This document shows positions 1 to 25,543 of a stretch of DNA of 50,518 nt, piece after piece. This DNA is from Nemertoderma westbladi. Taxonomy: Eukaryota > Animalia > Xenacoelomorpha. Where the stretch lies: the NCBI GenBank assembly GCA_032718475.1, contig JAUCBJ010002204.1, positions 1 to 50,518 on the forward strand. The letters run 5' to 3'. Below the pieces are notes generated by a model. That model ran no database searches. It saw only the letters and a list, made by a program, of their open reading frames with translations, and was not told the origin of the DNA. The position numbers and the translations under genes are program-made. The stretch's first letter is position 1. Every line of letters begins with the position of its first letter.

Positions 1-1047
1 TGCCATCAAATCTAAACACCAAAATGAAATTTGTTCAGGGGCTGCGCGCAGGGTTTTTGGGCACGCGGTCTAAAAATTCAACAGGTTTTTAAAAGTGGGT
101 TGGGGTTTATTTGAACCAAGATTCATGAACTCCATTGGGAAATCCCAAAATGGGTAGGAGATAGATAACCAATGGGAAAAGAAAAGGAGATATCAGTTAC
201 ATGAAAATAGCCGGAAAATTTGATATGTATTGTTCTTAAACTTAAAATGCATTTATCTTTGAATTGTATTTTTCACATTTAAAATACTACTACTCAGCCA
301 TTTCTTAACCAATTGTCGAAATTTTTTTTTGTTTCATTTGTTTTCGGCTTTTAATCAAAAATTATAATTTTGAATTGTGCCATATTCATTTCTTGAAATT
401 TGTTAATATGCTGTATAATAAATAATAATTAATATTAGTTAATAATATAAAAAAAAAAATAAAGATCCAAAAAAATGTAACTGATAAGTTTTCTGGAGCC
501 GATGATGCTGATTCAGAAAAACCAAATTTTGCAAATTTTCTCCCAAAATTGGGAGAAAAAAATTGTAGTGTTTTTAGTGAAATTAATAATTTCGCTGGTG
601 GCCGCTAGAGGGCGAGGCAAATTTAAACATTTTTTATTTGAACCCAATCTTTGGCTATATGTTGATCACCCTAAAGGTATAAAATATACAAAACTACCCG
701 CGAACACAAATTATAGCCATCTGGAAAAAGCTCCATAAGGGGGTATACCGTCACACCCCCCCCCCCCCCCCCCCCCCACCTTAGCCTTCAACTCACTCTC
801 CCGACCACGTATGTTCAGCATACTGGCAGCATATGGTATTCCTGAGGAAATTACTGCAGCTATCAGTTCACTGTAAAATGGTTCCACCTCATTTGTGTTT
901 ACTGCTGATGGTGACTCAGATCCATTCGAAGTGTTATAGGGAATCCTGGTATACAGACGTTTCGGCCTAGGACGTTTCGGTCCAGGACATTTCGGCCCGG
1001 AGATTTCGGCCCGGACGATTCGGCCCGGACGTTTCGGCCCATGACTG

Positions 1048-1790
1048 TCTATAACGGGCTATAACGATCTATAACGGGCTATAAATTCCGATAAACAAGC
1101 TATAACCACCTATAACGATCTATAATATGAAAATTTACATTAAAAAAACGCCCATAGGGTGTGTTTAACTTTTGGATTAGCACTGCGGTGTGAAAAATAC
1201 CGCAGGTTAAAAATTAGGGTAGGCCTATGCCTAATTGATAGGCCTACTGCAGTTAGTACTGGTTCGTTTTTTTATTGGCCTATATTGCTCGCTTATTCTA
1301 TATCGACTACAACACAATGCCTATATCAGCATATCGACGTACTGCACTACGAGTTTGGAGTTGGGAGAAACCCGGATCGGAGGAGAACGACAAGCAAACC
1401 AGTTATCAGCCTTACGTTGATGCGCGAATAAACCATGGGACGGGGACTAGACTATGAATTACAGTACTACTATCCCAAAGAATACTACAGCACTGGGGAG
1501 AGGGGGGGGGGGGGGGTACCTGACTAATGAATATATATGCTGACTAATGAAGTAATGACTGATTTCATGATACCAAAAAGATGAAAAGCAGTATGGACGA
1601 AAAAAACCAAATTGCTAATTTACCGACTAGGAAAATAAATCCATGCTAAAATATGTTTTTTTTATTGTAAATTTTCATATTATAGCTCGTTATAGGTGGT
1701 TATAGCTTGTTTATAGAAAATTATAGCCCGTTATAGATCATTATAGCCCGTTATAGATCGTTCTACCTTTTAGTACGTACCACCACAGAT
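1048..1790. mobile_element. Non-autonomous foldback-type element with CTATAAC repeat arms (reversed copy about 27015-27966)
   Basis: 1048-1139 is the reverse complement of about 1667-1757; the arms consist of CTATAACGGG/CTATAACGAT units. Confidence 0.65.
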
Positions 1791-2531
1791 ACCGTTACCG
1801 GTTTGTAATGCTGGTTCTGTAGTCTGACAGCCTGGGCTACATGGTGTACGGTGTAGGCCATGGTACGGTAGGCTGTCAGGCAGGGTCAGTACAGCAGTAC
1901 AATTCGTACTAACAGTTGACAGATAAAATATTCAGGTAAACCTAAAGATATACAGTACAGTAGTTAAAATGACGAGGCGGGAAAAGTTAATATAGAGCAC
2001 GATATACCATACAGTAGTAGAACTAAATAAAAGGACATGGCATATAAAATAAGTAGAACAAATAGGGCATGGTTAAAAGTAAATAAAGGCACGGCGTATT
2101 GGAATAAATTAATTTAAACTTGTGCAAAATCTTAAACTACAGTAGTTACGATAGGTTATTTTAAACATAAAATAAATTAAATTACCGGCACGCCACATTT
2201 TATTAGTTGACAATGAAAAATTAAAAAATTAAAAAAATTTTATTAATAACTTAACCATCTCCAAAGTAAACACAAGAGTACAGTAGATCAGATAGAGTGC
2301 GCACAAGGGATGGTTGTAACTCTTAACAATATAATATAGTTACACAGATAGATCATGGTAAAGAATAATAACTAAAGGGCACAAAATATTTCAAAGTTGA
2401 AAAATAAAAAATTGAAAAGTGAAAACAACGTCTCAAAACTACAGTAGATCCGATTGGGCATGGCAAGAAATAAATCAATAAATATACAAGTGGCCCGCCA
2501 TACTGAATTGCTCTCAATAAGAAATATAATC

Positions 2532-3041
2532 CTACGCGACGCCAGGTATGAGTTTGTTCAGGGGTGGGCGAAATTTACGAATGTAGACCGCCTCCCCATG
2601 TATTCTATCAACGTCTGAGTGGTATTGACGAAAAGCTGTTACACGCAGGTCACCCAACCCGCACTGCAGGAAGTGCTCTGCCAAAAGGATCTCTACGTTA
2701 CGCTGGGACTCGGGGTTGAGTTCCCGTCTGAAATTCCTGATCATCGATCTATGGCCATTCATCCTAAGGTGTAAGGGCTGCTCTGTCTGGCCAATATAGA
2801 AAAGGTTCTGATGGTTGCTACAAGTGATGAAATATAGGATGTTAGCAGATAGACACGAGAAGGATCCTCTAATCACCTCACCCCACGGGGTAGTTCTCAC
2901 ATCACACAAAATTGAACATGTGAGACACCTAGTTGACTCACAGCTTACATTACCTCTCCACGATGGAACTTCCCTCTTACGGACCAAGAGGTTCCCCAGG
3001 TTCGGGGTAGACTTATTTGCTACGATGCAATCAATTGACAT
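2532..3041 (-). CDS. Penelope-like GIY-YIG endonuclease (C-terminal part of a 5'-truncated PLE), 169 aa
   Basis: PNLGNLLV, C...RC.TC, FSC...NILYFITC, FYIGQT...L..RMNGH, LAEHF, E..YI..F.P.LN. An upstream frameshifted VFTYH resembles the PLE linker. Confidence 0.85.
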   Translation of the reverse strand: MSIDCIVANKSTPNLGNLLVRKREVPSWRGNVSCESTRCLTCSILCDVRTTPWGEVIRGSFSCLSANILYFITCSNHQNLFYIGQTEQPLHLRMNGHRSMIRNFRRELNPESQRNVEILLAEHFLQCGLGDLRVTAFRQYHSDVDRIHGEAVYIRKFRPPLNKLIPGVA

Positions 3042-3232
3042 CTCACTTAGTACGGGCTTGTGGTGCCGCAGGACTGGTGTAACAATAGAGTCAAAATACA
3101 GTACCGGGTTAATGATAGGTAAACACGGTTATTTAGTGTATTTCTGTAATTTTCTTACGTATTCAGCTATTCCATGTAGGCCTACTCCATTTGATTATTT
3201 AGTCTGTAATGTGATTTCATATTGTTAATTAT

Positions 3233-3272
3233 TTACTTGAGAATGGGCCTAGGAGCTCGAAATCGATCGTAA
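3233..3272 (+). ncRNA. Minimal type I hammerhead ribozyme variant (U3-A8), Penelope-associated
   Basis: TTAC-TTGAGAA-T-GGGC ctagga GCTC-GAAA-TCGA-TC-GTAA. Stem I TTAC/GTAA, stem II GGGC/GCTC, palindromic stem III ATCGAT. Confidence 0.65.
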
Positions 3273-3365
3273 CAAACTCTTTATTTTATAAGTTTATAGG
3301 GAATTTAGATCATAACCAAACTTGGTACACATGTGCTGCATGAACCCTTTCATGTTTTGTGTAGG

Positions 3366-3370
3366 GGCAT
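3366..3370. repeat. 5-bp target-site duplication GGCAT (partner at 21977-21981)
   Basis: GGCAT lies immediately outside both LTRs and occurs once in the empty-site paralogues. Confidence 0.95.
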
Positions 3371-4542
3371 TGTTCGCGCTTTTGAAGACCTTTAGCAGTT
3401 TAACCTGCCAAAATTTATATGTCTTTTAGTTAATTAACAGACCTTTAGCATACGACAATATTTTATGCTAATAAACAAAACATTAGCCGAAGCCAGCCCA
3501 TGCGCGACCATTCACCCGTTGGATATACCCGGGAGGCTGAATTCGGATGCTTAGATTTTATTATTGCAGTGTAAGATTGCAGTGTAAGCCTACTGTATTA
3601 TTCGATTGATCGCTAATATATAATTTCTGACAGATATTATTCACTTTCGGGAAATATTAACAGTTCCTTTAGGACGTGGCGCTCTATCTATTTAAACAGA
3701 TCTAGGACTTATACTAAACGCAACGATAAGGCTTATGATTAAAGTATAAGGCGCATTCTTTAGGAAATGCTTTGTTACCAGTCACAATCATGCACACTAT
3801 TCTGCCGACCGTCAGTAAATTTGATCACACATAAAGAGAACAGCAATTGACTCATGTAGTGTCTACTAAATAACATTAGATTCAATATACACCACATTGA
3901 TATAAATCGCAATTGTTATATGTAGCCTGTCTCTCTAACCTGTAGTGTATCAAGAAAATTGGGAAATTTGGGTGATTTATCAATATTCTCCAAAGGACAA
4001 TATTTCATCAACAAAATCGATACAATTAATAACTGACTGTAAATAGCAGTACAAACAATATGATTAGTAAGTAAAGTCCGCCGTAAGTTAAGACAAGGTA
4101 ACAGTTATACTTTCTATAATCTAAGCAGTCTGAAACATGAGTTCTTCCAAAAGCCGATGTTCTGGCAAAAAATGGGAACACAACAACAGAATCATGTGAC
4201 ATGACTCTATGCAAGGATACCAGCTACCCTTATTCCACAAAGCTCCCACCCAACACAGAGAATGAGCATAAAGATAGGAAAATTCAGTTCAGTAGACTTG
4301 TGATAGGTCGAAATCAAAACTAACTCAAATCCTATTGGCAGATACAGAGGCAGGGCTATGAGGCAACCTTCCTAAGCTGGTTGGCCGATCAAACGGAGCC
4401 CAGATCCCTTCGTACAGCAAATCAGCCAATCAGCCGGTAGCTTGCACGATTCGAGCTAGCAATCCCCTTTAGAGTATTCCAGCGCTTGGGGGGAACTTGT
4501 TAGCAAGGCAAACGAATCAGTTATCCCACAAAAGCTTTTACA
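3371..4542 (-). repeat. 3' LTR (1172 bp)
   Basis: TGTTCGCG...CTTTTACA. Matches 20805-21976 with two substitutions noticed by eye. Minus-strand AATAAA at 3557-3562. Confidence 0.97.
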
Positions 4543-4550
4543 CCGCTCCC
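4543..4550 (-). other. Polypurine tract
   Basis: Minus-strand GGGAGCGG directly precedes the TG of the 3' LTR. Confidence 0.75.
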
Positions 4551-4620
4551 AGAAAATGGGATTTAAGTCTATAAAATATACAAAATCACAGTTTCTAAAA
4601 TATAAAAATACTCTAAACAG

Positions 4621-7600
4621 TTAGTCTTTCTTGCGCGGACGGCGTTTACGCAGTTTTTTAAAGCTAGCAAGAGTCTTTTTCTCTTTGGGGCGAGCCACTT
4701 TGCAAGGAGGGCTATAACTCCTGGGTGAAGGGTGCAATATGATTGCATCAGAAGGTATGGGATTACGATCGGTATATCCGCCGGTCGAAGTGCCGGGTTG
4801 GTTGACTTCAACTTCGGTGGGGAGGGGTCTAATGACCTTTAGAGCGCGTTTTAAGACGGCCGCTCTTACGGGTCCTTTAAGAGTCGTCTGAACGAGAGCC
4901 GTGGGTGGACCATAGGCAGTCAGAAACTTCCTTGGTTTAATGGTTCTTTCCAACTCGCGTTCGCGGGCTTGGTACTCGTAAGGCCGTCGATATACTTCCT
5001 GTAACTCGGGGTGTGAGTTGACAAATAAGTCTCCATAGTCAGGGTCTTGATGGATAAAGTTTATTAAGTTGTAAGAATGGATGTCACTAGGATTAATGCT
5101 CCTGAGAAATTTGCGTACATATTTGGTTGAAATACATTCTCCGACGCGCTTCAGTAGTTCGTAACTTGATATGCGTGATTTCTGCTCGACGGAGGCAAAT
5201 AAATAAGGATGGAACGCATAAACTCCTTCGTAAGCGCGTCCAGGGTAATAGCGATGGCGTGAATCACAATGCAAATCAGCGTTCGCTTCCCAAGCTCTGA
5301 TATAACGTAGTACAATCATTTCATCTACGCTCTCTAAATCATGATTAAAGGGACAATCAAAGCTGGCGTGTCCTTTTAATTGACAATGGTGGCATTGAGT
5401 CATAAATTGGGGGCAGACAGCAAAAATGTGCAAATTATTAAGCCGGCAATATGCACAATAGATTTCCATCGACGGTTGCTCGTGGAAATAGGAACAGAGA
5501 TCGTTTGTGTCCATAGACGTAATATGGTCTCTCGATGCGCACAGCCGACAACGTTGTCGAGAAACATAATTGGCATGGCGATAATCATACGCAGTGAGAC
5601 ACTGTGGACCTTGATACCATTCCAAAATGTAGTCGCTGTCGCTACTCGGAGGCGTGGGAGGCTGAATCTCTTCGGATTCTAAGCATATTGGTTCGTCTTC
5701 TCCTTGTATAGTTGAGGTAGGCATGGCTGTCTCTTCAAGTGGACCTACCGTCTGAATTTCCACGACAGAATAACCTGTGGGGATTCGAGGTCTTTGGATA
5801 ACAGAGGAGTGCAGGTTTATTACACAAATGTCTTTGAAAATAGCAAATCCAGCGCTATCTAACTTCTCCGCAGCTGAGTCTCTTAAGCTGAGCTTGGTCA
5901 AAGCGCGGTCTTTGAATTGGCTATCCACATTGCGAAACGGGGTTAAAAATCGCCGGAAACATTCAAAGCGGATGAATTTATTATGTTCATCTAGCTTAGC
6001 GAGTTTGGTCCCAAGTATTAATGGATGGGCGCGTATAGTACGACTGCACACATCGGCTAGCCAACCGGAAAGTGCGGTGTTTTCAAAGATCGTGTAGATA
6101 GCTAAGGAGGGGCGGAGTGGAACACTCATGAAGCTATACACGGCGCCAGGTGCGGTCAACGGTCCGTCAAAGTATAATCGAGAATAATGGTCTCCGTATA
6201 CTTGTTGATAGTTGATGGGATTTCCGACCTTGAAATTCCATCCGTATTCCTGAAAAGCAAGATGTCCGATGGAAGTTCGTTGCACCTTTGTAATGTTGCT
6301 AGACGCATTAGCATACATGGTGCGAAAGAAACCTCGGCCTTCGGCCCAAGGAGCTATCAGCTGAGTATCCACGAAAGGATAGGGGATATTTTCCATATTC
6401 GGAAAGTCGTTTTGGAGATCTCCATAAACAGCTGAGCCGATTTTAATGATTCTTTCGTTGAACAACATCTCGAGAACGGGCTGGGGTAACATCGATCCAT
6501 CGATACCCATGGCCGGTTTGCGTTCGGTGTCAATGACGTAACGCTGAGCGAGCTCGAATTGTCCATGTCGGAGATTCTTTTGCGTTTCGGTGAGAGTTTC
6601 AAAGGAATAATCGATCACGTCGGAACACGCTCGCGTAAACACGTGGGTGGAACCAGCTAATCCGCGTATGTGTATCATGCGCGTAGTTCCTAATTCTCCG
6701 ATCGGAACACTACCTTCGTTATCGTAAGTAACATCTCCATACATCTCAATGACATTAAGAGTTTCATTCCACTCTTTGGTGGCGTTCTCGAGGGTCATCC
6801 CTACTGGATGCCACAATGTGGCGCATTGATTAGCGTCAGGGAGATCACTATACTTCATGTATCGAGTGGTATACGTCTCCACATTTCCATATCTTTGTAT
6901 TTTCTCCTCCTCGAATAATACGTCTAGATTCCAATGGACTAATCGAGTTTTAATAAATCCATCAAGATTATAAGGAGGTTCTGTATCCTTCTCTATTCGA
7001 GAAACGTTATATGGTTTTCGGAATGAGTTTACCTTTACTAACTGATCCAGATGTTTTTGCAATTGTTCGAGTTCGACAATGTCTAGAGGATTTATTAGTG
7101 GTAGAAACTTTAAATTATGCGTCGGGTCTTCTGGTTTTACCATATAATATTGAGTCAGATTAACGTAATAAGGGTGGTCTTTAATTCCATAAAAAGAGTT
7201 CTGTAAAGGTCTAGCGCGTATGTTGACATCGTGTACCATACGACGGACAAGATCCGCTCGATTGTCCGGAGGTTCAACGAGTATACCGTCAACGCGAGCG
7301 GCCTCGATTGGCGGACGCTGTAACATAGGAGCGTCAGCAATAAGATTTTGCGATCTTATGCTAATATCAACCGGTTGGGGTTGTATCTTTGCGAAGAGTT
7401 TGTCTCCGAAATGCGGAACCATCGAGGGATGACGGACGGTTTTAGAGTAGAGATCGGTTATGAGTATCTGAGCTTCGGGTTGGGCTAAAGCGGCTTCTTC
7501 TCTCTCATCCATTTCCGTATGTTTCTCCTCGAGTTGATTTTCCTCCGCTTGTTTCTGTAAGCGTTCTTCTAGAAACTCCTGTAGAGAATACGTACGTCCA

Positions 7601-8043
7601 AGCTCGATGTCCTCCTCGAGGTTTTGGATTTCTCTATCAAACTGCGGCAAGGCTAACTCTTTCACCGATTGGACTTGCTGCTGTAATTTACATTTCTCTA
7701 GACAATCCTGTGTTCCCTTTCCGATTTTCTGTCGGATGGCATCTAAAGCATTTCTTATAACGCTCTCCTCGACTTCCGTGGCAGGTTGTATCGGGGTTAA
7801 TCCTGGCCGATTGTAAGGATTAAATGGCGATGTTAGATGCCCGCGTCCCAATCCGGCTAAATAGGATGGTCGAATATCTAACGAACCCACTGCTGGAGCA
7901 CCACCGATTAACTGCTCGGGTAACACCAAATCTTTGAACAGTGAATATAGCTCGGGAGGATCAGTGATACTGTTAGGATCAAGAGTTTGAGGTCTCACTG
8001 AGGAATGAGGAGGCCTGACCGAGTATTCCGGAACTCTGATCAT
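4621..8043 (-). CDS. Accessory ORF4 (1140 aa): coiled coil + DnaQ-like 3'-5' exonuclease domain + zinc-knuckle cluster + basic tail
   Basis: ExoI-like VTYDNEG (D441/E443); ExoII-like LP..VLEMLFNERIIKIGSAVYGDL (D542) then FVD; ExoIII-like LAIYTIFEN (Y650/E654). CRLC, CAYC and CHHCQLKGHASFDC knuckles at aa 832-897. C-terminal KKLRKRRPRKKD. Confidence 0.8.
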   Translation of the reverse strand: MIRVPEYSVRPPHSSVRPQTLDPNSITDPPELYSLFKDLVLPEQLIGGAPAVGSLDIRPSYLAGLGRGHLTSPFNPYNRPGLTPIQPATEVEESVIRNALDAIRQKIGKGTQDCLEKCKLQQQVQSVKELALPQFDREIQNLEEDIELGRTYSLQEFLEERLQKQAEENQLEEKHTEMDEREEAALAQPEAQILITDLYSKTVRHPSMVPHFGDKLFAKIQPQPVDISIRSQNLIADAPMLQRPPIEAARVDGILVEPPDNRADLVRRMVHDVNIRARPLQNSFYGIKDHPYYVNLTQYYMVKPEDPTHNLKFLPLINPLDIVELEQLQKHLDQLVKVNSFRKPYNVSRIEKDTEPPYNLDGFIKTRLVHWNLDVLFEEEKIQRYGNVETYTTRYMKYSDLPDANQCATLWHPVGMTLENATKEWNETLNVIEMYGDVTYDNEGSVPIGELGTTRMIHIRGLAGSTHVFTRACSDVIDYSFETLTETQKNLRHGQFELAQRYVIDTERKPAMGIDGSMLPQPVLEMLFNERIIKIGSAVYGDLQNDFPNMENIPYPFVDTQLIAPWAEGRGFFRTMYANASSNITKVQRTSIGHLAFQEYGWNFKVGNPINYQQVYGDHYSRLYFDGPLTAPGAVYSFMSVPLRPSLAIYTIFENTALSGWLADVCSRTIRAHPLILGTKLAKLDEHNKFIRFECFRRFLTPFRNVDSQFKDRALTKLSLRDSAAEKLDSAGFAIFKDICVINLHSSVIQRPRIPTGYSVVEIQTVGPLEETAMPTSTIQGEDEPICLESEEIQPPTPPSSDSDYILEWYQGPQCLTAYDYRHANYVSRQRCRLCASRDHITSMDTNDLCSYFHEQPSMEIYCAYCRLNNLHIFAVCPQFMTQCHHCQLKGHASFDCPFNHDLESVDEMIVLRYIRAWEANADLHCDSRHRYYPGRAYEGVYAFHPYLFASVEQKSRISSYELLKRVGECISTKYVRKFLRSINPSDIHSYNLINFIHQDPDYGDLFVNSHPELQEVYRRPYEYQARERELERTIKPRKFLTAYGPPTALVQTTLKGPVRAAVLKRALKVIRPLPTEVEVNQPGTSTGGYTDRNPIPSDAIILHPSPRSYSPPCKVARPKEKKTLASFKKLRKRRPRKKD

Positions 8044-8058
8044 GGGTTTATTTAGCGA

Positions 8059-8874
8059 TCATTTGAGACGGGCGATCGTAGGTGATACGTCGAACAGGTT
8101 TCGCTCGAAACTCCCGTAAGTATAACGCGTAAAACTGTGTTTAGCACAACGTCTCCGCGGATGTTTATGTCTTTCCGTTTGCTGGTTAGGTCTAGGGCAT
8201 GCGTCACAATAATACCAAAGACGTACGTCCTGTAGAGGAAACGCGGGTGATCGTTCTCCAGTTTTGCAATACTCTTCCATTTGTTCAAAGCTGTCCGGGA
8301 CAACAGGCAGTGGACGATCTGCGGTAAGATACATCATGGTGAAATAAAGTCGTTTGAGTTCTACCATGGGATCATGATGTATACCTTGAGGATATCTAGT
8401 CTCTAGGTTCTGTTGACTGGCAATATTGAGATAGGTTTCTCTCAAAAATTCCAAGTAGTCGTTGAAGTTGATGCGCTTATCGGGTTCTTCAACGTTCTCT
8501 CTGTCGAGTAGGTTGCGAATAGAGTTCTCGTGTTCTATTCTCGGTTTATCATTACGATTCCGCTGGGCATGATATTTAAATAAAACCATTTCCCTTTCGG
8601 TGTCTACATCGTCCGTATCATGTAAATCGGTAGGATGGCCAGTAGTTAAGAAGTCCATATACGTACCATTACGATTCGTATAGCGAGCGGTGAATTTTCT
8701 ATAGTCCAATTCACGCGTAAGTTGTTCCTGGGACATAGGCGGTTCGATATAACGACCATCGTCCTCCGTAATAGTCGGATCGGCTTCACCGCGTATCAAG
8801 CTATCCACAAACGCTTGTAAAGGTAAGGTATATCTCTCTCTAATACCAAGGTCATCTTCTATTAATTCCGTCAT
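8059..8874 (-). CDS. Accessory ORF3 (271 aa), function unknown; C-terminal Cys/His cluster
   Basis: Open frame inside the element in sense orientation, after a 1.6-kb AT-rich spacer. YYCDAC...HKH....CAKH is a possible Zn site. In frame with ORF4. Confidence 0.75.
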   Translation of the reverse strand: MTELIEDDLGIRERYTLPLQAFVDSLIRGEADPTITEDDGRYIEPPMSQEQLTRELDYRKFTARYTNRNGTYMDFLTTGHPTDLHDTDDVDTEREMVLFKYHAQRNRNDKPRIEHENSIRNLLDRENVEEPDKRINFNDYLEFLRETYLNIASQQNLETRYPQGIHHDPMVELKRLYFTMMYLTADRPLPVVPDSFEQMEEYCKTGERSPAFPLQDVRLWYYCDACPRPNQQTERHKHPRRRCAKHSFTRYTYGSFERNLFDVSPTIARLK

Positions 8875-8916
8875 ATCTGCTATCTGAGTTTATTAATATT
8901 AGTATGAGTCAATATT

Positions 8917-9067
8917 TAGGCAAGCGGGCGTCGCTGCCTACTAGTCTTTGCCCCCGGACAGTGGGTTTCTCAGCGCCGATGTACCGTTGTCGCGGTGTTT
9001 ACGCCAACATGTAGCAACAGCACGACAACGATAATCGGCACAAGTCCCACCACTGTCCGTCCCAAAG
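8917..9067 (-). promoter_or_regulatory. Structured RNA element: long imperfect hairpin plus short hairpin upstream of ORF3
   Basis: Nested inverted pairs CTTTG/CAAAG, CGGACAGTGG/CCACTGTCCG, GCCGAT/ATCGGC and CGTTGTCG/CGACAACG (8946-9067). A second hairpin TAGGCA..TGCCTA spans 8917-8940. Confidence 0.7.
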
Positions 9068-9679
9068 GCTTGAATCCACTTGAGGTTATCTCGGTAGAGT
9101 TAGGGCTACTTTACAATTGCGATTAGCTACTGTAAACACACTTTAGTAGTAACATTCACCTATAAACGCACAAATTCCATACAATCATTACTTACTGCAC
9201 ACATGCAGGCCATTTGTCCGTTAGTCAGTATCTTCCAGAATGTCACGTTATTACTATGTATCCTTGGATACTAATAGTGCGCTATGTATCCTCTTATGCT
9301 ACGCAATGGGGCAAGCCTTTTATTGTTCTTTTAACTTGCTTCTAATTCTAGCGTGGTGTTGCTATGGTGACATTATGGAAAACTAGCGGTAGAATTAGGG
9401 TAATTCTCATGCATACAGATCTGGGATGCTATTTAATAGTAATTCTTTAATTGCCAATATCCTCTTTATGCATGATTTTATTAATTTTATCGGCTATTGA
9501 CTATATGTTGGAGATTCTCGCACTCTGACACATTCAATGGGATAAATCTCCACTCCCGTGATCTATTAATTAATGGAATTTTGGGAATGTTAAAAATTGC
9601 ATAAAATGACAATTTATTAAATTCATTTAAAATATGAATTTCAATTTATTCCCGTGAATTTTATTATTTGGTGGTAAAT

Positions 9680-9970
9680 TTTATTCCAGAACAAGTCTGG
9701 GGACATAGGATCCTTAATTCTATGAAAATTGTCTTTTAAGAGTATCGGTAAGTGCTACGATATCTTAATCGACTAGAATATTTTAAAGGATCTAAGTTTT
9801 ACAGATTTTAATAAATATTAAATTAATACTTAAGATGGGCACCGATTTATTCCAGAGCTTGTCTGGGGACGTTAACCACTGATTCTAGAATTTGTCTTTC
9901 AAGTATATCGGTGGGTGCCACGATATCTTAATCGACTAGAATTACAGATGGTCAAAAGATTTAACAGATT
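9680..9970. repeat. Two diverged ~125-bp direct repeats in the pol-ORF3 spacer
   Basis: TTTATTCCAGA..GTCTGGGGAC...TATCGGT...ACGATATCTTAATCGACTAGAAT at about 9680 and 9846. Confidence 0.8.
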
Positions 9971-10487
9971 TATTTGCGTTTTACGCTACTGTTAGAGGGA
10001 CATCACGCTACTATATGTATTATTTGTTATAAGGTAGAAGAGCAATATCGCACGAAGCAATGTCAGTGTGAAGAGGCAAGTCGTTTCCAAGGTCTACCCA
10101 GAGCTTGGTTTAGCCGAGACACGAGGATCTGAACTTTGCATTCCTAATACTCTGCCTACCAATAATACTTGAATATAGTAGTGGCTTTATTGTACTTTAA
10201 TAAGTACTGACATGTCATCTTACTATAGTCTCGCATTTATAATATAATACGGACAGTAAGGAAAGAGAAAAATAATTATTTCTTGCCGTCGCACTAAATA
10301 TATATTATAAGTAATTAAGTACGTAATAAACACTAATATATTGCACTAATTTACTAAATATTCTAAAATAACATTTTACTAAATAAAATTAAATAAAAAC
10401 GATTATAATAAAGTACATAATAACATTTACATATAAAATGTAATAAAATAGATATAATAATATAGACATACACCCACTCCAGACGTA

Positions 10488-13400
10488 CTACGTTGAGGAG
10501 CCCCTAGATGTTTGAGGAATTAGGGAGGTGGTCGTGGGAAGAGTTTCTTGCCTTCCATAGTTTCCGGAGAGTTCCCGGTCTCTTTCCAGCAAACATAAAC
10601 GACCAACTGGGCGATTGAGTTGTTGCGTCTCAAAGATTATGCCGGGTTTCTTGAAGTTACGCCGCATGACAACGAGTTCTACTGAGCGCACTAAACCATC
10701 CTCCGAGATGTGCGTCTTGATGATACGACCTGTCTGCCACCGTCTACGTGGAAGGTCCGGATCTACAATAAGCACCATGTCTCCGGCGCTGACATTTTCC
10801 TGCTGTGCAAACCACTTAGTTCGAAGTTGTAGTGTGGGCAGATAATGTTTCTCAAAATGGTCAGCGAAACGACGGGATAGCAACTGCATAAGCTGCCAAG
10901 TTCGACGGCAGTATTCATCCCCGTCGGCAATCTCGGATTGTGGGAGCATGGCTACAGGTTTCTTAAGTAGGAAGTGCGCGGGTGTTAGCGCTTCCAGGGA
11001 ATCGGGACTCGATGAGACTGGCATAAGCGGTCTCTTGTTAAGATAGGCAGCGATTTCCTCCATTAACGTCCGCAGAAGTTCGTCGGTGAGATATGCGCGG
11101 CACGGCACTATAAAGTGAAATGCGGTCTTGACACTTCGAATTAATCTCTCCCAACTTCCTCCCCACCAAGGGGCGTCGGCGGCGTTAAAGGTCCAGCTAG
11201 ACGCTGTTATCCGTAGCTGGTCGTCCACCTGTCTTTGATTCCAGTCCTTTACGTATGCCTGAATTTCGTTGTTGGCACCAATGAAGTTCGTTCCCTTATC
11301 AGATCTCATCGTGTTGCTAGTTCCGAAACGAGCGATCTGTCGTCGTAAACATAAGACGAAGCTATTAGTAGATAGATCGTTCACCATATCGAGATGGATA
11401 GCTCTACAAGTCATGCAGACAAAGATGACACACCATCTCTTGACTATAGTCCTAGCACGATACACTTCAATAGGGCCAAATAAATCCACACCAGTATTAG
11501 TAAAGGGTGGTTCATAAAAGCTTACTCGTTCCCTAGGTAATTCTGCCTCTCGCTGGGTTAAAGGCCTACTGAATGCTTTCCTACAAGGTATGCAGTTCCT
11601 AAGAACTTGGTTCAGAGCTCTACGTGGTTTATAAAAATAATAGCGAGTTCGAATTTCGCTAAGAACTCGTTCTCTACCAGCATGATACAGTTTACTGTGA
11701 ACATCTACAATCATCTTGATTTGTACTTCAAGATTTCTAATGAGTATAGGGAATTTAGTGTCAAAGGATAATGGGGCGTTGGTAAGCCTTCCTCCAACAC
11801 GTATTAACCCATCTATCATTGTGCTAGAGAAGCGATCCCTTAAGCGCATCTGCGGATTTCTCAACAACAGGAAATACTTATCGGAATCCTCATAGCATTG
11901 CAGGAGTCTCAGTATCTGCTTATTAGTTTCTTCATGCTCCTGGTGGCTGATCTTCTCCTTTAGAAACCGGTCTGATATCTTGTACTTAGGTAGATCTTTA
12001 ATAACATGAACTTGCGCAGATGTCACTGGAGCAGTATCACTAGTGGTCTGCGTCCTGGAGTAGTGATGGTGAAAACATTTCTTTAAGTATGTGACGGCTT
12101 TACAGAGCCGATTCCAGGAACTGTAATGATGCAGTGCTCTCTGCAGCAGGGGTGAGATTCCTTGCGAGACGTCTGGTATCCCAGATTTCCAATCTCTGTC
12201 TCTAATTTCCACAACAGACTTATTTGTGGCGAGGGATTGTGGATCCGAAGTATCGTTTTCGGAAGTATGTAATACAGATAGATCGATTGTCGGTTTAAAT
12301 AACTTCGATTTACTTGTCCGAGTTTTGGGCTTGACTTTCTCCACTCCCTTGGCTTGTCTAATCTCAGCCGTAGTAAGGTGAGGAGGCCATTCATCCTCTT
12401 CCTTGCTCAGGAAGTCGGGTCCACCCAACCAGTCAGGAGTATATATCAGTTCCTGTGGAGTTGCTCCCCTGGAGGCGATGTCAGCTGGGTTAATCGTACC
12501 AGGGCAATGTCTCCATTGATCTATCGTTGTGCGACTAAGAATAATGGCCACTCTGTTAGTAACAAAGACGCTGAACTGACAGACTTCATTCATTATATAC
12601 TCCAACACAAGTAAAGCGTCGGTCCAATAAACAGTTTTCTCCAGTGGATAATCGATCTGTTCTGTTACATTCCGGCCGATAGCTGTAGCATATAAAGCTG
12701 CTTTTAACTCCGCCCGAGGAACCTTCAGCTTGTTGTTAATCAATGCCTTAGAGGTAACCAAGGCAACTTTGATTCCATCCGGAGTTTCGACTCGCAGGTA
12801 TGCTACTATACCTATTCCCATATCGCTGGCATCTCCGAATACATGGAGTTGATAGGAATACGTAGGGAGAACATGACCAAAATATGAACGGGAAATTATA
12901 AAGTTCTCGATGGCAGGTAGCGAGTCCTCCCATTTCATCCATTTCTTTAATAGTTCTCCCTTGTGTGGATCGTCCCACGAGTGGTTTTCAAGCCACATTT
13001 GTTGTACTAAACTCCGAGCAATCAATATAACTGGGCTAATAAATCCCAAGGGATCGAAATAAGTGCTCAGAATACTTAAACAAATCCGTTTGGTCCGAAC
13101 TGGATTATCTCGCTGTTTTAGCTGAAAAAACAGGATATCTCTTTCTGTGTCCCACTTCAAGCCAAGCGTCTTGGTTTCCGGAAGATCGTCGTGTATTAAG
13201 TCGAGGTCTTTTGATCCCCGGTCTTCTACAGATATTGCTTCCAGAAACTCACGGGAGTTGCTGGTGAACTTCGTCAATCGAAATCCACCTCTTTTCAAAC
13301 ACTCAACCGTTCCTTTCGCGACATCAATGGCTTCTTTTACTGATGGAAGGGACTTTAAATTGTCGTCCATGTATATGTCTCGTTTGATGTTATCTATCAC

Positions 13401-13880
13401 CTCTTTTGAGAAGGCGTCCCGGTTGTCATCCGCAGTGGTCCGCACCACTGAGCAGGCGTTTGAAGGGCTTGATATAATCCCAAAAGCCTGGATGGTCATC
13501 CAGTACTCTACCGGTTTCTGGTTGAGATCTCCTTCAGGCCACCACAGGAATCTTAGGCTGTCTCTATCACGATCCAACGCCTTGACTTGTGAGAACATTC
13601 CTTCTATATCGGAGGCGAACGCGATGGAATATTGTCTTAATCTTAAAAGTATTCCCAACAAAGATTGGAGCAAGTTGGGTCCTGGTAACAACTCGGAATT
13701 GAGGGATTGGCCCATATATAGGGCTGAGCCATCAAATACGACCCGTACTTCATGGGGTTTACCGGGTTTGGGAACATAATGATGTGTTAGATAATAAGTT
13801 CTTTCAGTTATTGGAGTTCCTTCCGGTACTCGCTCCGCATATCCCTTTGTGATAAATTTCTTCAACTGAGTTTGGTACAT
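10488..13880 (-). CDS. pol: Bel/Pao Pol (RT, RNase H, integrase), 1130 aa; the frame stays open up to 13910
   Basis: RVVFDGS, LLPGPNL, DIEGMF, YMDD (RT); FGDAS, PRAEL, WTDA, NPADIASRG (Pao RNase H); H..H..C..C, GVDLFGP, SDKGTNF, GGSWER (integrase). Confidence 0.96.
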   Translation of the reverse strand: MYQTQLKKFITKGYAERVPEGTPITERTYYLTHHYVPKPGKPHEVRVVFDGSALYMGQSLNSELLPGPNLLQSLLGILLRLRQYSIAFASDIEGMFSQVKALDRDRDSLRFLWWPEGDLNQKPVEYWMTIQAFGIISSPSNACSVVRTTADDNRDAFSKEVIDNIKRDIYMDDNLKSLPSVKEAIDVAKGTVECLKRGGFRLTKFTSNSREFLEAISVEDRGSKDLDLIHDDLPETKTLGLKWDTERDILFFQLKQRDNPVRTKRICLSILSTYFDPLGFISPVILIARSLVQQMWLENHSWDDPHKGELLKKWMKWEDSLPAIENFIISRSYFGHVLPTYSYQLHVFGDASDMGIGIVAYLRVETPDGIKVALVTSKALINNKLKVPRAELKAALYATAIGRNVTEQIDYPLEKTVYWTDALLVLEYIMNEVCQFSVFVTNRVAIILSRTTIDQWRHCPGTINPADIASRGATPQELIYTPDWLGGPDFLSKEEDEWPPHLTTAEIRQAKGVEKVKPKTRTSKSKLFKPTIDLSVLHTSENDTSDPQSLATNKSVVEIRDRDWKSGIPDVSQGISPLLQRALHHYSSWNRLCKAVTYLKKCFHHHYSRTQTTSDTAPVTSAQVHVIKDLPKYKISDRFLKEKISHQEHEETNKQILRLLQCYEDSDKYFLLLRNPQMRLRDRFSSTMIDGLIRVGGRLTNAPLSFDTKFPILIRNLEVQIKMIVDVHSKLYHAGRERVLSEIRTRYYFYKPRRALNQVLRNCIPCRKAFSRPLTQREAELPRERVSFYEPPFTNTGVDLFGPIEVYRARTIVKRWCVIFVCMTCRAIHLDMVNDLSTNSFVLCLRRQIARFGTSNTMRSDKGTNFIGANNEIQAYVKDWNQRQVDDQLRITASSWTFNAADAPWWGGSWERLIRSVKTAFHFIVPCRAYLTDELLRTLMEEIAAYLNKRPLMPVSSSPDSLEALTPAHFLLKKPVAMLPQSEIADGDEYCRRTWQLMQLLSRRFADHFEKHYLPTLQLRTKWFAQQENVSAGDMVLIVDPDLPRRRWQTGRIIKTHISEDGLVRSVELVVMRRNFKKPGIIFETQQLNRPVGRLCLLERDRELSGNYGRQETLPTTTSLIPQTSRGSST

Positions 13881-13910
13881 TTCCTTAGCTGAAGCATTTG
13901 CCGTAAGACG

Positions 13911-16900
13911 TCAATGTAATTGATTGATTCTTTTCTCAGCTAAGGGTCTGTTATTTATAAATCTAGGTTCCCGTTTTCGAAATGGTAGTCCGATTTCATA
14001 TCTACCTTGATCTTTTAAAAAACGTGTGGTTGTTTCCTGGATTTGCTTGGCTCTTTCTTCTTCTATCGACAGGGCTTTGTCGTATGAATTGGGTTCTACC
14101 AATTCTTGGGTAAAGAATCGTACGGCGAGTTCGTCCCGAGTTCTAGCGTTGTAGCGCTCTACCTCGTCATTAAGTTCGTCATTATAAACAATGGATTCCG
14201 TTGGGCGAATCAGTTGACATAGGTTCGCTTGGTTTTTCCAAGTTTGATTCTCTGTAAGTAGGTCAATTGCGTTCTCTTCTTCGAAGAGTTGGTAGATGTC
14301 GTCGTTATCTGAGGAGTATGGTGTTCCCTCAGTTAGTTCGTCCACTTCACTGCTCTCCACTTCCAAACCATTTATCTGGCATATTCTTTCTGGTGGTAGT
14401 CTCTCTTCGAGAGTTCTGCGGGAAGGGCCAGTAAAGTACCAACCTACTCTAGTTCTTACCGCATAGGTTTGTAGTGGCTGCGGTTGAGCAGGTCGTTTCT
14501 CCAATGTCTCGAGCGCCTCGTGAGCGTTTTGGCCGATAAGTATTTGCACTCCAGGATAATCTGTCTGGAATCGAGGTATTTTAAGTTGTTGGATGCTCTC
14601 GTCCTCGTCCCAGTTATAAGGCTCTACTTGGGTATTAGCGAAGTTCTTTATAGCTACCATTTTTACTGACCTTATACTTTGTTCTCCTAATTTATCCTGG
14701 GGAGTAGACAATGCACCAACATAGTAATCGGCCGTGATGGTAGATTTCCAAACTTGCATAATTCTGGACATATTCAACTTAGTGCGGAATTTGGGTTGTC
14801 CAGCAAAGATGTCTACGGCTAATTCTTGATCGATGAATGTTCCTGTGCTGCCTGAATCGAGTAGGGCGTTCACTATGTAACTTTTGTTGAGACCATGAAC
14901 TCTTACTTGCACTACAGGAAATTCTCTTATTCCTATGTTGGAAGTTGGAACTTTCCAAGATGGTTGTTTGTCAAAGGTAGTTGGAGTAAACTCGTCAGTG
15001 TCTTTTTCATACGTAAGTGCTCGATAAACTGTGGTATTTATTAGATAACAGGATTCGTTGGCATCGGAGAATTCGTCTGTATAGAATCCTTCCCACTCAG
15101 AACCTTGGTCAGTGTCGTTCACATCACTGAACTGGACATGTAATTCGGGCTCACTTACCTGACTCGGGTGGTTTCGTTCGAATTCGCTATGTAACAAGAC
15201 GTGATGTTTCGTACCGCACTTTGCACACTTTATGTCGGAGTAACAGGTTCGCCGTTGGTGTCCTGGTCTGAGGCAATTATAGCATAACCGCTTATCCCAC
15301 ACGACTTCTCGTCTGGCTACTAGGGATTTCTTTAGGAATTCAGCACACGCACTCAAACGGTGGGGCCCGTCGCACAGCACACAGTTTGGTTTAATGTTAC
15401 TCACTTTACCTTGGGTAACGTTATGCACTCTCGTTCTTTCTTCGGGCTTTCTTCCGTGTACTCTGTTAGGAGACTGAGGAGGAGTCTTAGCAACCTGTTC
15501 TCTCCTGTCATGGGTTCGAGCTTTAGATTTACTTACGTCCTTTGAGGTCTTGTTAATATAGTAAAATTTCTCGGTGTCTTTCCCTCTGTCTTCTTCTTGA
15601 GAAGCTTGGCTTTCGCCGTCATCAGTATAACACACAGGTGTTACTCTTCTCCTAGAAACGGGTTTCTCACTCACCTTATTTTCCGATGTTTTCTCTCTGG
15701 ACTGCTTGATGAGTTGTAGCTTTACTTCACCATCTAAGAAGGACATGAGATCAGCCATGGTGGGGCTTCGTCGTTGCTGCTCATTCATATACAATACCTT
15801 CTTATCCCAGTGAGTACATACTCCACCCTTTGGCAAAGTAGAGACTATGGCTCCAATAACCATAGAACTCTGATATTCATGAGACTTACCTAACCAATCC
15901 AATTGTCGGCAGATCTCTTGAATCTCATCGGAAAACTCTATAATCTCGTTACTGAGGAACTTTCGGGGGGCTACTAGTTTTGCATAGAAATACTTAGCTA
16001 TGTTATCCTTATTACCATACCTGGTGTTTAATGTATCCCAAACTTGTCTTAATCCATTCGGATGTCCAATAAACTTCAACGCCATTAACTTGGGAGGTCC
16101 TTCCAAACATTTGATGAGGAATCTCAGTTTCTCTCCGCTAGATAGTACAGAGTTCTGTATGCTATCTTCGTAATATTCATTAAACGGTAACCATTTCATC
16201 TCATCTCCATTGAATTTGACGATTTCTCCCACTTTAACCGCCTGGCGGGCTTCTGTTCTAGCCATCTGACGCGTAAAGCTTTCTTGGGCCATCGTATTAT
16301 TTAATATCGAATTATCGGTATATGAACTTCTCGGATTATTATCAGGTCTATAGGGAATATCATTAACAACAGGTTTATAATCACCATTAATAGGGTTTGC
16401 TATAGGAGTTTCTACTTCACTAGCAGTATAGATGCGTGTAGGCTCCACACCTTGCGCATGTAATACTTCAGACCTAACAGGCTGACACACTGTTACAGGG
16501 GTTATTGGTATTCCCTTTTGTATGTTGACTAATTTGTCGCGTTCCAACGCGATACTTTGCTGCACTTCTTGCAGTTCTATCCTACTTTCCCTTACTGTTC
16601 CCTTAAGTTGGTGGACAGTCCCTTCTAAATCTCGGATCTGCTGTGAGGAACATTCTCTGTGTTCTCTCAGCTGCCCGAGCAAGAGACCCTTCTCCCGCCG
16701 TCCCTCATCAACCCACTCGACCGCCGAAGCGGGAGTCGCCAACATAGTAGCGGGCCGACACGAAACGACGGGAGACAAATCTTGGATTTCTCTCTCGGCC
16801 TCAAGAACTGGGGCATTCTCATGGACTGTTCTACCGGGTACAGGCAGTGTAGTACTGTGTAAAGGGAATTTAGAGCTAGGCTCTGGAAGTACAGGGGTCT

Positions 16901-18650
16901 CTAGCACAGGAGTGGCTTTGGGAACGACAGGCCTAATTATTTCAGGCTCATCAACTATTGTAGGGAGTCTTTTGACCTTAATAATTTGGTCTGTGGGTTC
17001 TGTACTACCTACAGCTGTACTAGTTAATTGTCTTCTAACAGCAGGGGGCAAATCGGGCAATTTATGACGGTGAGATGTCTTTCTACGCCTACTGAGACGA
17101 TATCTATTTCCTCCGCCTTCAGGATCGGTGGTATCTCCCTCCTCCGATGATGTATAACCTTGGCGTTTGGAATTAGATTGATTCATCATCTGCATTCGAT
17201 TGTCAGTCAACTGTTTATTTATGTGATCTTGACTTTCCTGAATATTTTCCAATGCTAGCTGGGCGATCTCGTCAGACGCTCTCCTTTCTGCTTCTGCCAA
17301 TTTTCTTTCTGCCTCTGCTGCTGCAGCCTTTCTTTCTGCCTCTGCCGCTGCAGCCTTTCTTTCTGCCTCTGCCTCTGCCGCTGCAGCCTTTCTTTCTGCC
17401 TCTGCCGCTGCAGCCTTTCTTTCTGCCTCTGCCTCTGCTGCCTTTCTTTCTGCTTCTGCCGCTGCCACTGCTGCTGCTTTTCGATCCTCTATCTGTTTTT
17501 TCTTGACTTGTTCTTCCTGGGCTCTGGCGATGCGGAGTTGTTCATCAAATTTAGCTTGGTTTGCAGCTAACATTTCAGTATCGATTGCGTCCAACACATG
17601 CTTGGTTCCTTCACTATTAGGGGAAAGTCCAACCAGTCGTCTCCTCAACTCTTCATCACCCAAGAAACGTTGATAGTCTGACAGATAGATGTCGATGGCG
17701 TCTCTCTTTCGCGGTCTTTCTGCTGTCGCTTCGCCTTCCGTTTGAGAAAAGATGGCATCGGTTGATTCGTCATAGGTTGGTCGCTCAGCCAGCTGGGATT
17801 TCCACTGGGCTGTTTCTTGAACTTTAAGACCTACCCGTTGGAGCCATGTCTTGACAGCAACTTGCAGCGACGTGTCCTGTCTTCTTTTAGAAGTTTCCTC
17901 AAAGGCTGATAGGATTAGTCTAATGCGCAGTGTTCTTTCGCGTACTTGATAAAGCAGCTCTTCCTGCTCTTGAGGTCCTTTGGGTTGTCGAAACAGTTGT
18001 TCTTCTAATCGTTCTAAGGAGCCGAAGAACCCCTGCACATATCCTGCTGCCGACCTCTTCCAAACAGCTGGATCCATTGTATCTTTAGTCACTCCTATCC
18101 TGTGTATGTCTTCCCAAGTAGCTTCGGACAAATCTAACGGGAGTCCGGGTCCGGGAAAGTTCCATTGGGACTCGACAATAGACATCAATTCTTCCCTGGC
18201 GTATCCCGCATAACTATCTTGGGTCGCTTGCTTATTTCTCGCCCAATCAACTTGGTGTTCCTCCACCGCAATAAATATAGTTGTTAATACCGCGGCAGGA
18301 AGGGTGAGAAGGGGATCTGAGTAGGCTGTAGCCGCCATCTGTACTCCGCGTTCGGGGTTCAGCTCTACAGTATCCGAACTACTGGAGCTATCGGGTCGCT
18401 GGGAACAAGTTTCTTGACTAGGATCTTGCTGCTGTTGGACAGCTGCTTCTTGGTTCCGTTTGACCTGGGCCCGAGTGCCTATGACAGACCTATGGTGGAT
18501 TAGCCTAGGGTCTGATACTACTGGAGGAGTGACCTTTCTTTTAGTAGGAGGTGAACTGAACTCTTTTCTTACTTGTTCCACACTCCTATCCTTGTCACAG
18601 ATGGTTGTATCGATTAAACTGTCTGACAGGTTTTGCTTTGTGTCAGACAT
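13911..18650 (-). CDS. gag: Bel/Pao Gag-protease part of the polyprotein (1579 aa), ending at an in-frame TGA
   Basis: KFNGDEMKWLPF...EKLRFL..CL.G capsid-like region; triple knuckle CVLCDGPH..C / CYNCLRPGH...C / CAKCGTKHHVLLH; aspartic protease ALLDSGST; GRYEIGLPF linker. Confidence 0.93.
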   Translation of the reverse strand: MSDTKQNLSDSLIDTTICDKDRSVEQVRKEFSSPPTKRKVTPPVVSDPRLIHHRSVIGTRAQVKRNQEAAVQQQQDPSQETCSQRPDSSSSSDTVELNPERGVQMAATAYSDPLLTLPAAVLTTIFIAVEEHQVDWARNKQATQDSYAGYAREELMSIVESQWNFPGPGLPLDLSEATWEDIHRIGVTKDTMDPAVWKRSAAGYVQGFFGSLERLEEQLFRQPKGPQEQEELLYQVRERTLRIRLILSAFEETSKRRQDTSLQVAVKTWLQRVGLKVQETAQWKSQLAERPTYDESTDAIFSQTEGEATAERPRKRDAIDIYLSDYQRFLGDEELRRRLVGLSPNSEGTKHVLDAIDTEMLAANQAKFDEQLRIARAQEEQVKKKQIEDRKAAAVAAAEAERKAAEAEAERKAAAAEAERKAAAAEAEAERKAAAAEAERKAAAAEAERKLAEAERRASDEIAQLALENIQESQDHINKQLTDNRMQMMNQSNSKRQGYTSSEEGDTTDPEGGGNRYRLSRRRKTSHRHKLPDLPPAVRRQLTSTAVGSTEPTDQIIKVKRLPTIVDEPEIIRPVVPKATPVLETPVLPEPSSKFPLHSTTLPVPGRTVHENAPVLEAEREIQDLSPVVSCRPATMLATPASAVEWVDEGRREKGLLLGQLREHRECSSQQIRDLEGTVHQLKGTVRESRIELQEVQQSIALERDKLVNIQKGIPITPVTVCQPVRSEVLHAQGVEPTRIYTASEVETPIANPINGDYKPVVNDIPYRPDNNPRSSYTDNSILNNTMAQESFTRQMARTEARQAVKVGEIVKFNGDEMKWLPFNEYYEDSIQNSVLSSGEKLRFLIKCLEGPPKLMALKFIGHPNGLRQVWDTLNTRYGNKDNIAKYFYAKLVAPRKFLSNEIIEFSDEIQEICRQLDWLGKSHEYQSSMVIGAIVSTLPKGGVCTHWDKKVLYMNEQQRRSPTMADLMSFLDGEVKLQLIKQSREKTSENKVSEKPVSRRRVTPVCYTDDGESQASQEEDRGKDTEKFYYINKTSKDVSKSKARTHDRREQVAKTPPQSPNRVHGRKPEERTRVHNVTQGKVSNIKPNCVLCDGPHRLSACAEFLKKSLVARREVVWDKRLCYNCLRPGHQRRTCYSDIKCAKCGTKHHVLLHSEFERNHPSQVSEPELHVQFSDVNDTDQGSEWEGFYTDEFSDANESCYLINTTVYRALTYEKDTDEFTPTTFDKQPSWKVPTSNIGIREFPVVQVRVHGLNKSYIVNALLDSGSTGTFIDQELAVDIFAGQPKFRTKLNMSRIMQVWKSTITADYYVGALSTPQDKLGEQSIRSVKMVAIKNFANTQVEPYNWDEDESIQQLKIPRFQTDYPGVQILIGQNAHEALETLEKRPAQPQPLQTYAVRTRVGWYFTGPSRRTLEERLPPERICQINGLEVESSEVDELTEGTPYSSDNDDIYQLFEEENAIDLLTENQTWKNQANLCQLIRPTESIVYNDELNDEVERYNARTRDELAVRFFTQELVEPNSYDKALSIEEERAKQIQETTTRFLKDQGRYEIGLPFRKREPRFINNRPLAEKRINQLH
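17280..17480 (-). repeat. Coding tandem repeat (AEAERKAAA)n in the Gag N-terminal extension
   Basis: Repeated TCTGCCGCTGCAGCCTTTCTTTCTGCC units of 24-30 bp that keep the frame. Confidence 0.9.
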
Positions 18651-18762
18651 ACTTAGCTACCTGGTATACAGTTGAATGCTTACTGCTATAGTTACAGTTA
18701 AAGCAAGTGTAGTAATTCAGTATAACCGTTGCCTAGTACCGGTAATTTATTATAGTATATTA

Positions 18763-25457: not shown

Positions 25458-25543
25458 TATACATGAAAGGGTTCATGCAGCACATGTGTACCAAGTTTGG
25501 TTATGATCTAAATTCCCTATAAACTTATAAAATAAAGAGTTTG

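Follow-up and report, generated by a model that had tools for sequence, protein, structure and literature searches.

What a long, GC-rich hairpin does in the non-coding part of a retrotransposon is the question raised by positions 8917–9067 of a 50,518-nucleotide stretch of the Nemertoderma westbladi genome (contig JAUCBJ010002204.1 of assembly GCA_032718475.1), referred to below as the window. The initial annotation had described a strand-specific RNA hairpin at this place, just upstream of accessory ORFs, and had considered a signal for the expression of these ORFs, a packaging signal and a Dicer substrate or decoy. It had located the structure correctly: the ORF3 ATG (8874) is 43 nt downstream of 8917 and 193 nt downstream of 9067.

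The hairpin is part of an LTR retrotransposon on the minus strand, 18,606 bp in total (3371–21976), with two LTRs of 1172 nt that begin with TG, end with CA and show 2 differences (5' LTR 20805–21976, 3' LTR 3371–4542, both minus). A target-site duplication, GGCAT, stands at 3366–3370 and again at 21977–21981, and an uninterrupted empty-site paralog with a single GGCAT is found at about 29230–29300. The gag-pro ORF (13911–18650, minus) contains DUF1759, knuckles and a weak match to aspartyl protease and ends with one TGA, and pol (10488–13910, minus) encodes a reverse transcriptase with YMDD, a Pao Peptidase_A17 region, an integrase (zinc domain, Integrase_H2C2) and DUF5641, so that the order gag-PR-RT-RH-IN is present together with Pao-specific domains. 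The element is assigned to Bel/Pao because of DUF1759 in gag-pro and Peptidase_A17, the integrase zinc domain and DUF5641 in pol. Downstream of pol follow, in this order, a spacer of 1613 nt, ORF3 (271 aa) and ORF4 (1140 aa). The hairpin stretch or part of it was found in six of the seven sequencing runs listed. The family is young and abundant, its abundance following from the contigs of four runs, all of which span 30 of 30 bins of 8500–9500, two of them with thousands of variant contigs.

Fold, strand preference and variation of the hairpin

On the sense (minus) strand the region is predicted to form a rod of 122 nt (8946–9067) with 48 pairs in helices of 5, 10, 1, 3, 8, 13, 4 and 4 bp and with two purine-rich internal loops, and a small hairpin (8917–8940) with 6+3 bp, whose 24 nt agree with the initial annotation; the perfect helices of 10, 6 and 8 bp that it also named appear as Watson-Crick helices in the plus-strand fold. 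Predicted bulges on the 3' strand of the rod comprise single bases at 8972 and 8981 and a 3-nt bulge at 9000–9002. The GC content is 58% in the hairpin region against 32% in the remaining spacer, which bears out the description of a GC-rich stem in AT-rich surroundings. Folding of both strands against dinucleotide-shuffled controls, a comparison proposed with the annotation, gave the lower energy for the sense strand (−77.4 kcal/mol, z −6.75, versus −63.6 kcal/mol, z −5.39, for the plus strand), and none of 200 shuffles folded as well on either strand; the rod alone reaches −64.5 kcal/mol on the sense and −51.4 kcal/mol on the plus strand. Among 236 segments of 150 nt over 3371–21200, 8917–9067 has the lowest energy on both strands, and by z-score it ranks first on the plus and third on the sense strand in a noisy ranking with 12 shuffles per segment. 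In contexts of 400–1000 nt, 42–43 of the 57 pairs keep a pair probability above 0.9.

The annotation had also raised the possibility of a dispersed MITE with its own target-site duplication. The hairpin is not a MITE, because there is no such duplication (at four candidate boundaries, direct repeats above 4 nt are absent within a distance of 6 nt), because it occurs once in the window and because the contigs of four runs show no sign of dispersed copies: the share of them that continues into unlike sequence is 0, 0, 0.05 and 0.09, and depth does not peak at the hairpin. Hammerhead ribozymes have the core CUGAnGA and SECIS elements a RUGA quartet; both identities were rejected, as neither motif occurs in the sense strand of 8900–9100 and the whole element gave no Rfam match at E ≤ 1. 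As modelled, the hairpin is real, well folded and intrinsic to the element.

Several parts of the predicted rod invite functional readings. The word TGGGAC occurs twice (9064–9059 and 9049–9044, minus), each time setting a GGA in an internal loop in which it faces purines (GGGG, AAA), and on this fold the two loops are candidate protein-binding sites. Primary microRNAs have a stem of about 33 bp with single-stranded basal flanks, and the upper stem of the rod, with 33 nearly continuous pairs (9044–9012), is of about that length. That the rod serves as a Drosha/Dicer substrate, or as a decoy for dsRNA-binding defence proteins, is nevertheless very unlikely, since 16 more pairs close the stem in place of single-stranded flanks, cutting would destroy the genomic RNA and no Rfam microRNA matches. 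Over the apical loop lies the 6-nt palindrome ACATGT (9007–9012), which together with a predicted homodimer of −140.2 against 2 × −65.6 kcal/mol (about 9 kcal/mol lower, in a calculation without a matched control) would suit a kissing-loop dimerisation or packaging signal. A palindrome of this kind has a chance of about 3–7%, however, the tip varies among copies, and the 5' leader, the usual place of such signals according to excerpts on Ty1, already has 12–14-nt palindromes and a strongly folded region (20696–20845), all of which makes a dimerisation or packaging signal at the rod quite unlikely.

The preference for the sense strand is only suggestive. The initial annotation had pointed to plus-strand C·A mismatches that become G·U pairs on the sense strand and had seen in them a sign of selection on the RNA. 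The asymmetry itself was recovered, with five G·U pairs in the sense fold (probabilities 0.77–1.0) and one in the plus fold (0.5), and with G·U pairs left out the two folds are about equally stable (sense −61.8, plus −63.5). Selection, by contrast, is suggested only (P 0.035–0.11): the 5:1 asymmetry has a binomial P of 0.11, simulated inverted repeats with 8–16 random changes (300 trials each) reach the observed strand difference in 6–9%, the advantage of the sense strand taken alone falls short of significance (P 0.06–0.11), and with family variants included the asymmetry has a P of 0.035 (7:1) or 0.09 (7:2). The plus strand also folds strongly (z −5.39), and the 24-nt hairpin favours neither strand (−11.6 on each).

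Variation among family copies was followed in the contigs of the four runs over 8500–9500, where 40, 12 and 24 of the 298 substitutions, 66 indels and 281 loose ends were listed, along with 6 joints. The counts rest on these lists, which give no linkage between changes, and the depth of contigs does not measure copy number. A compensatory replacement of both partners of a pair does not appear among the listed changes. Three of the listed substitutions are located in the hairpins: those at 8988 and 9035 turn an A-U pair into a sense-strand G·U, which is a mismatch on the plus strand, and the one at 8922 disrupts a slippery sense-strand pair (probability 0.5) next to a bulged U. With 3 of the 24 listed non-coding substitutions, the hairpins are hit more thinly than the rest, not significantly so (P 0.13), and with 7 of the 12 listed indels they are enriched in these (P 0.0007). 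None of the seven lies inside the 10-, 8- or 13-bp helices; four are in loops or at helix edges, two in the basal 5-bp helix and one at a pair of probability 0.47, and they make up 1–4% of depth in the two deep runs and, in one run, as much as about 45% at the tip. Loose ends of diverged copies, among those listed, cluster just outside the structure (8915, 9071, 9087) and at the tip (9008). Depth dips on both hairpin flanks in all four runs, a weak signal in contig depth, and the rod is removed in none of the six listed joints.

These data bear on whether the hairpin is a neutral fold-back relic, left by a template switch or a captured fragment and carried along by a successful high-copy family. 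Such a relic would be expected to fold strongly on both strands, as is the case, and decaying inverted repeats match the strand difference in the simulated 6–9%; the substitution depletion falls short of significance, the region is rich in indels and a palindrome lies near its axis. On the other hand, the rod arms, compared as reverse complements, are 71% alike over 70 columns, yet on the sense strand they pair nearly throughout, the 58% GC has been retained in a spacer of 32%, and the listed variants avoid the core helices. A neutral relic thus appears rather unlikely, and although the data only suggest selection, selection of the hairpin on the sense RNA is in our own estimate quite probable.

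Access to the accessory ORFs and what they encode

The AT-rich spacer between pol and ORF3 (8875–10487, minus) is non-coding and contains 24 ATGs that open ORFs of 1–26 codons only, which makes it unlikely that the accessory ORFs are reached by scanning or by reinitiation from pol. ORF3 (8059–8874, minus), which has no recognised family and ends in a Cys/His and basic stretch, is under purifying selection as judged from the copies compared, in which 11 of the 16 listed differences are synonymous (P 0.005 against an expected share of 0.34). Therefore ORF3 needs a route to expression.

Internal initiation would provide one, with the rod and the 42-nt AU-rich linker together forming a signal, IRES-like or of the shunt type, by which translation would begin at the ATG of ORF3. 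The position 43–193 nt before this ATG, the 24% GC of the linker and the upstream ATGs, which require a bypass, are in keeping with it, whereas a Rfam search of 8000–10600 at E ≤ 5 returned nothing but a chance-level bacterial leader inside ORF3, no pyrimidine tract precedes the ORF3 ATG or the candidate acceptor discussed below (longest run 3 nt), and a rod of −64 kcal/mol in a leader would block scanning. In the shunt of CaMV a short ORF ends 5–10 nt before the stem; here 55 nt separate the stem from the end of the closest short ORF upstream, and a CaMV-type shunt was rejected. Translation by an IRES or shunt is accordingly rather doubtful.

Splicing would provide another route, and ORF3s of LTR retrotransposons are described in an excerpted account as "typically" expressed from spliced messages (PMC5408684). 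A candidate 3' splice site for an accessory mRNA is found at 8884–8904 (minus), with a branch-point-like TACTAAT (8904–8898) that begins 13 nt after the end of the small hairpin (8917) and a CAG (8886–8884); three AGs (8884, 8880, 8877) stand in the gap that follows the small hairpin and precedes the start of ORF3. In 42 nt of this composition the strict word has a chance of 0.013, and a looser pattern of a branch point plus YAG one of 0.037. Position 8903 within TACTAAT differs in 26–70% of depth. An intron with the GTAAGT (9195) as donor and the CAG (8884) as acceptor was rejected: the donor word, the sole GTAAGT of the spacer, occurs at chance level and is variable among copies, its +3 position differing in 78% of one run's depth. 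A spliced-form joint is represented by none of the six listed joints within 8500–9500, a range outside which a donor would not show.

Given such an acceptor, the hairpins might act as an intronic regulator of how much accessory mRNA is made relative to genomic RNA. The 13-nt distance and the low chance of the acceptor-like motifs speak for a regulatory role of this kind, against which stand the lack of predicted pairing between the rod and the acceptor region, the lack of any 11-nt complementarity between the hairpins and the remainder of the element, and the putative status of splicing itself; we regard it as unlikely.

Two further features of the spacer were observed. At 9680–9953 it holds a tandem duplicate with a period of about 163 nt, each copy of which contains AAGACA (9898, 9735) and is predicted to fold into a stem, with a z of about −3.2 to −3.3 on the sense strand. 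At 10208–10241 (minus) a TATAAA (10241) stands 31 nt before a TCAGT (10210) in AT-rich DNA, a possible internal promoter by sequence.

ORF4 (4621–8043, minus) shares its frame with ORF3, from which one TGA divides it, and has a 3'-5' exonuclease-like region at about aa 470–670 and two CCHC knuckles (aa 863 and 884). The exonuclease-like assignment is a weak one drawn from sequence matches. Among 1.84 billion representatives a single relative, P0001, was found (E 2e-7, 31% over aa 498–672), which shares with ORF4 the exonuclease-like region and the CCHC knuckles and itself matches PF01612 at E 0.2. For aa 330–780 of ORF4, 25 of 30 Atlas matches are 3'-5' exonucleases (PF01612), with scores up to 0.91, and in NCBIfam the same segment matches RNase D (TIGR01388) at E 0.024. 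AlphaFold models of parts of ORF4 gave no confident fold (pLDDT 29 and 28), and in a PDB sequence search the ORF4 region found no nuclease and P0001 only nucleocapsid knuckles. Protein searches among proteins of near length gave no match for ORF3 and for aa 300–960 of ORF4, and the Atlas matches of ORF3 are unnamed or mixed, with low recognition. D-x-E is the first catalytic motif of DEDDy 3'-5' exonucleases. In ORF4, where VIDYSFE (aa 476) aligns with ILSIDVE of P0001, the D-x-E is missing from this motif, and ORF4 is probably not catalytic; a role in RNA binding rather than catalysis is plausible for this reason. Malik et al. are said to have mentioned an exonuclease among the accessory genes of nematode Bel/Pao elements in 2000, which bears on the newness of ORF4.

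P0001 has 648 aa, an intact-looking exonuclease motif and nucleocapsid-like knuckles, and is encoded on a contig of 9449 nt that may mark a related element. A protein search with P0001 finds only itself. The ORF4/P0001 alignment gave 564 pattern matches in metagenome contigs, none of them confirmed, and pol gave 21 in metagenome contigs, likewise none confirmed, and none in viral contigs.

A possible handle on unspliced genomic RNA

The reading that we favour, tentatively and as somewhat short of probable, is that the rod is a cis-acting, CTE/RRE-like handle on the full-length, unspliced genomic RNA, which would serve its export and its routing to packaging. The accessory ORFs would be made from a spliced mRNA using the TACTAAT…CAG acceptor 3' of the hairpins; splicing of the accessory message is likely because scanning is blocked by the 24 ATGs upstream. 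Should this acceptor be in use, the hairpins are intronic for the accessory mRNA, so that splicing would cut both out of it and leave the rod on genomic RNA only, a placement that, from retroviral biology as described in parts of two accounts, would be expected of an export or packaging handle (PMC7551171; PMC10309623). The rod would then be bound at its two GGA internal loops or its bulged helices by a protein, perhaps one of the host's export or transport factors, perhaps ORF4 of the element itself.

A handle is favoured by the top stability among the 236 segments, the GC contrast, the 5:1 G·U asymmetry and the acceptor-like motifs, as well as by two of the three listed substitutions, which create sense-strand G·U pairs, by the listed indels, which spare the 10-, 8- and 13-bp helices, by the alignment breaks and, weakly, the depth dips at the edges of the structure, by the listed joints, none of the six removing the rod, and by the purifying selection on ORF3, which calls for a route to its expression. 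It is disfavoured by the P of 0.06–0.11 for the asymmetry, the P of 0.13 for substitution depletion and the enrichment of indels (P 0.0007), by the absence of AAGACA from the rod and of a pyrimidine tract from the acceptor, by the variability of 8903 and of the donor at 9195, and by the weak matches and the lack of a confident model behind the nuclease-like assignment of ORF4.

Cis-acting signals formed by RNA structure are familiar from retroviruses and from a few retrotransposons. The CTE adjoins the 3' LTR, whereas the rod lies upstream of the accessory ORFs. Like the Mason-Pfizer monkey virus/SRV CTE as excerpted accounts present it, the rod is a long stem-loop with two internal loops in the non-coding RNA of an LTR element, and it measures 122 nt, or 151 nt with the small hairpin, against 150–175 nt for the CTE (PMC7551171; PMC11379458). 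AAGACA, the NXF1-binding motif of the CTE, is absent from 8917–9067, where TGGGAC is the repeated word, and occurs in the spacer only in the two tandem copies. By analogy the rod would at best work like a CTE or RRE, its membership in the CTE class having failed for want of AAGACA. The MTE of MusD is likewise described, in the portion of text available, as a structured cis element of an LTR retrotransposon that serves RNA export (PMC5767303), with a length given in another excerpt as 412 bp (PMC11379458).

The logic proposed here, in which an accessory protein serves the export of unspliced genomic RNA, is that of HIV Rev/RRE and of the C. elegans Cer1 CERV, and the accessory export protein of Cer1 is made from a spliced mRNA, as set out in part of the Cer1 study (PMC10309623). 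That ORF4, with a degenerate exonuclease fold and knuckles, binds the rod on the unspliced genome in the manner of Egalitarian or Rev is suggested by analogy and is in our judgement unlikely. Cer1 belongs to an LTR lineage other than that of this Bel/Pao element. The 3'-5' exonuclease homology domain of Egalitarian is reported, in the excerpts of the study, to enclose bulged stem-loops including the localisation signal of the I-factor, and the signals concerned to be A-form helices in which bulges on the 3' strand cause a bend and U-A pairs occupy fixed positions (PMC13186709). Like the I-factor signal as characterised there, the rod is a retrotransposon stem-loop with (predicted) 3'-strand bulges (PMC13186709). 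The I-factor case, however, involves a host protein and a non-LTR element, while here an exonuclease-like ORF is on the element itself; moreover, no LOTUS-like domain was detected in ORF4, and the rod is longer and GC-rich compared with the I-factor signal (PMC13186709, in part).

An exonuclease-like accessory ORF downstream of pol is also reported for the LTR retrotransposons Juno and Vesta of bdelloid rotifers and for Terminons, in contrast to whose DEDDy-type ORF3 (Juno/Vesta) the ORF found here belongs to a Bel/Pao element, is much longer, carries CCHC knuckles and has no D-x-E (PMC5408684; PMC6431247, both in part). The role of the DEDDy-type ORFs of rotifer LTR elements is left open in the excerpted text, and a handle bound by ORF4 would point to a possible purpose for such ORFs (PMC5408684). 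It would also mean that a Bel/Pao element encodes an export or transport system of its own, whose components have no relation to Rev. According to ICTV, the replication of Bel/Pao elements is poorly understood (PMC8742986). Among the titles listed by full-text searches (subscription journals lying outside this scope), no paper on a structured cis-acting RNA signal in a Bel/Pao element appeared, and a 120-nt candidate in a young and abundant family offers a direct test of downstream-gene expression and genomic-RNA movement in this group.

The giant element and its surroundings

The giant Bel/Pao element and its accessory gene matter as much as the hairpin, and should the hairpin be neutral, the element would be the more interesting object. 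At 18.6 kb it is nearly double the usual upper limit of Belpaoviridae, for which ICTV gives 4.2–10 kb (PMC8742986). LTRs, domain order and Pao-specific Pfam families are common to this element and Bel/Pao elements as described (PMC8742986; PMC3118150, the latter in part), whereas its accessory ORFs are not env-like by Pfam, unlike the usual Bel/Pao plan. The element also has a 5' leader of 2.1 kb, a gag-pro of 1579 aa and an exonuclease-like/zinc-knuckle ORF of 3.4 kb. Gag-pro and pol share one frame, split by a single TGA at 13911–13913, and ORF3 and ORF4 likewise share one frame, split by a single TGA at 8059–8061; the two TGAs are either recoding signals or breaks in this copy.

Self-priming of reverse transcription is known from Tf1, and, by analogy, a similar mode is possible in this element and would be unusual for Bel/Pao: the first 10 nt after the 5' LTR (20795–20804, minus) are exactly complementary to LTR positions 436–445 (21532–21541), a complementarity seen in 0.1% of 5000 shuffled LTRs. 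Belpaoviridae have a primer-binding site of 18 nt for tRNA-Arg or tRNA-Gly (PMC8742986), whereas no TGG-type primer-binding site follows the 5' LTR here. A 12-bp hairpin stands directly after the 5' LTR, and the leader at 18743–20760, with twelve ACCGGT words, a 14-nt palindrome (20758–20745) and a 247-nt duplication (19976–20509), is by sequence a candidate packaging or dimer region.

The element is inserted in a repeat (1–3370 and 21977–29321) that recurs in inverted form at 25461–29321 with 99–100% identity and includes a Penelope-like GIY-YIG ORF (2532–3041, 25764–26273). Neighbouring arrays of 84-nt C2H2 zinc-finger repeats occur on both strands (30979–32190 and 42549–46735), and the GC skew reaches 0.93 at 32001–33000.
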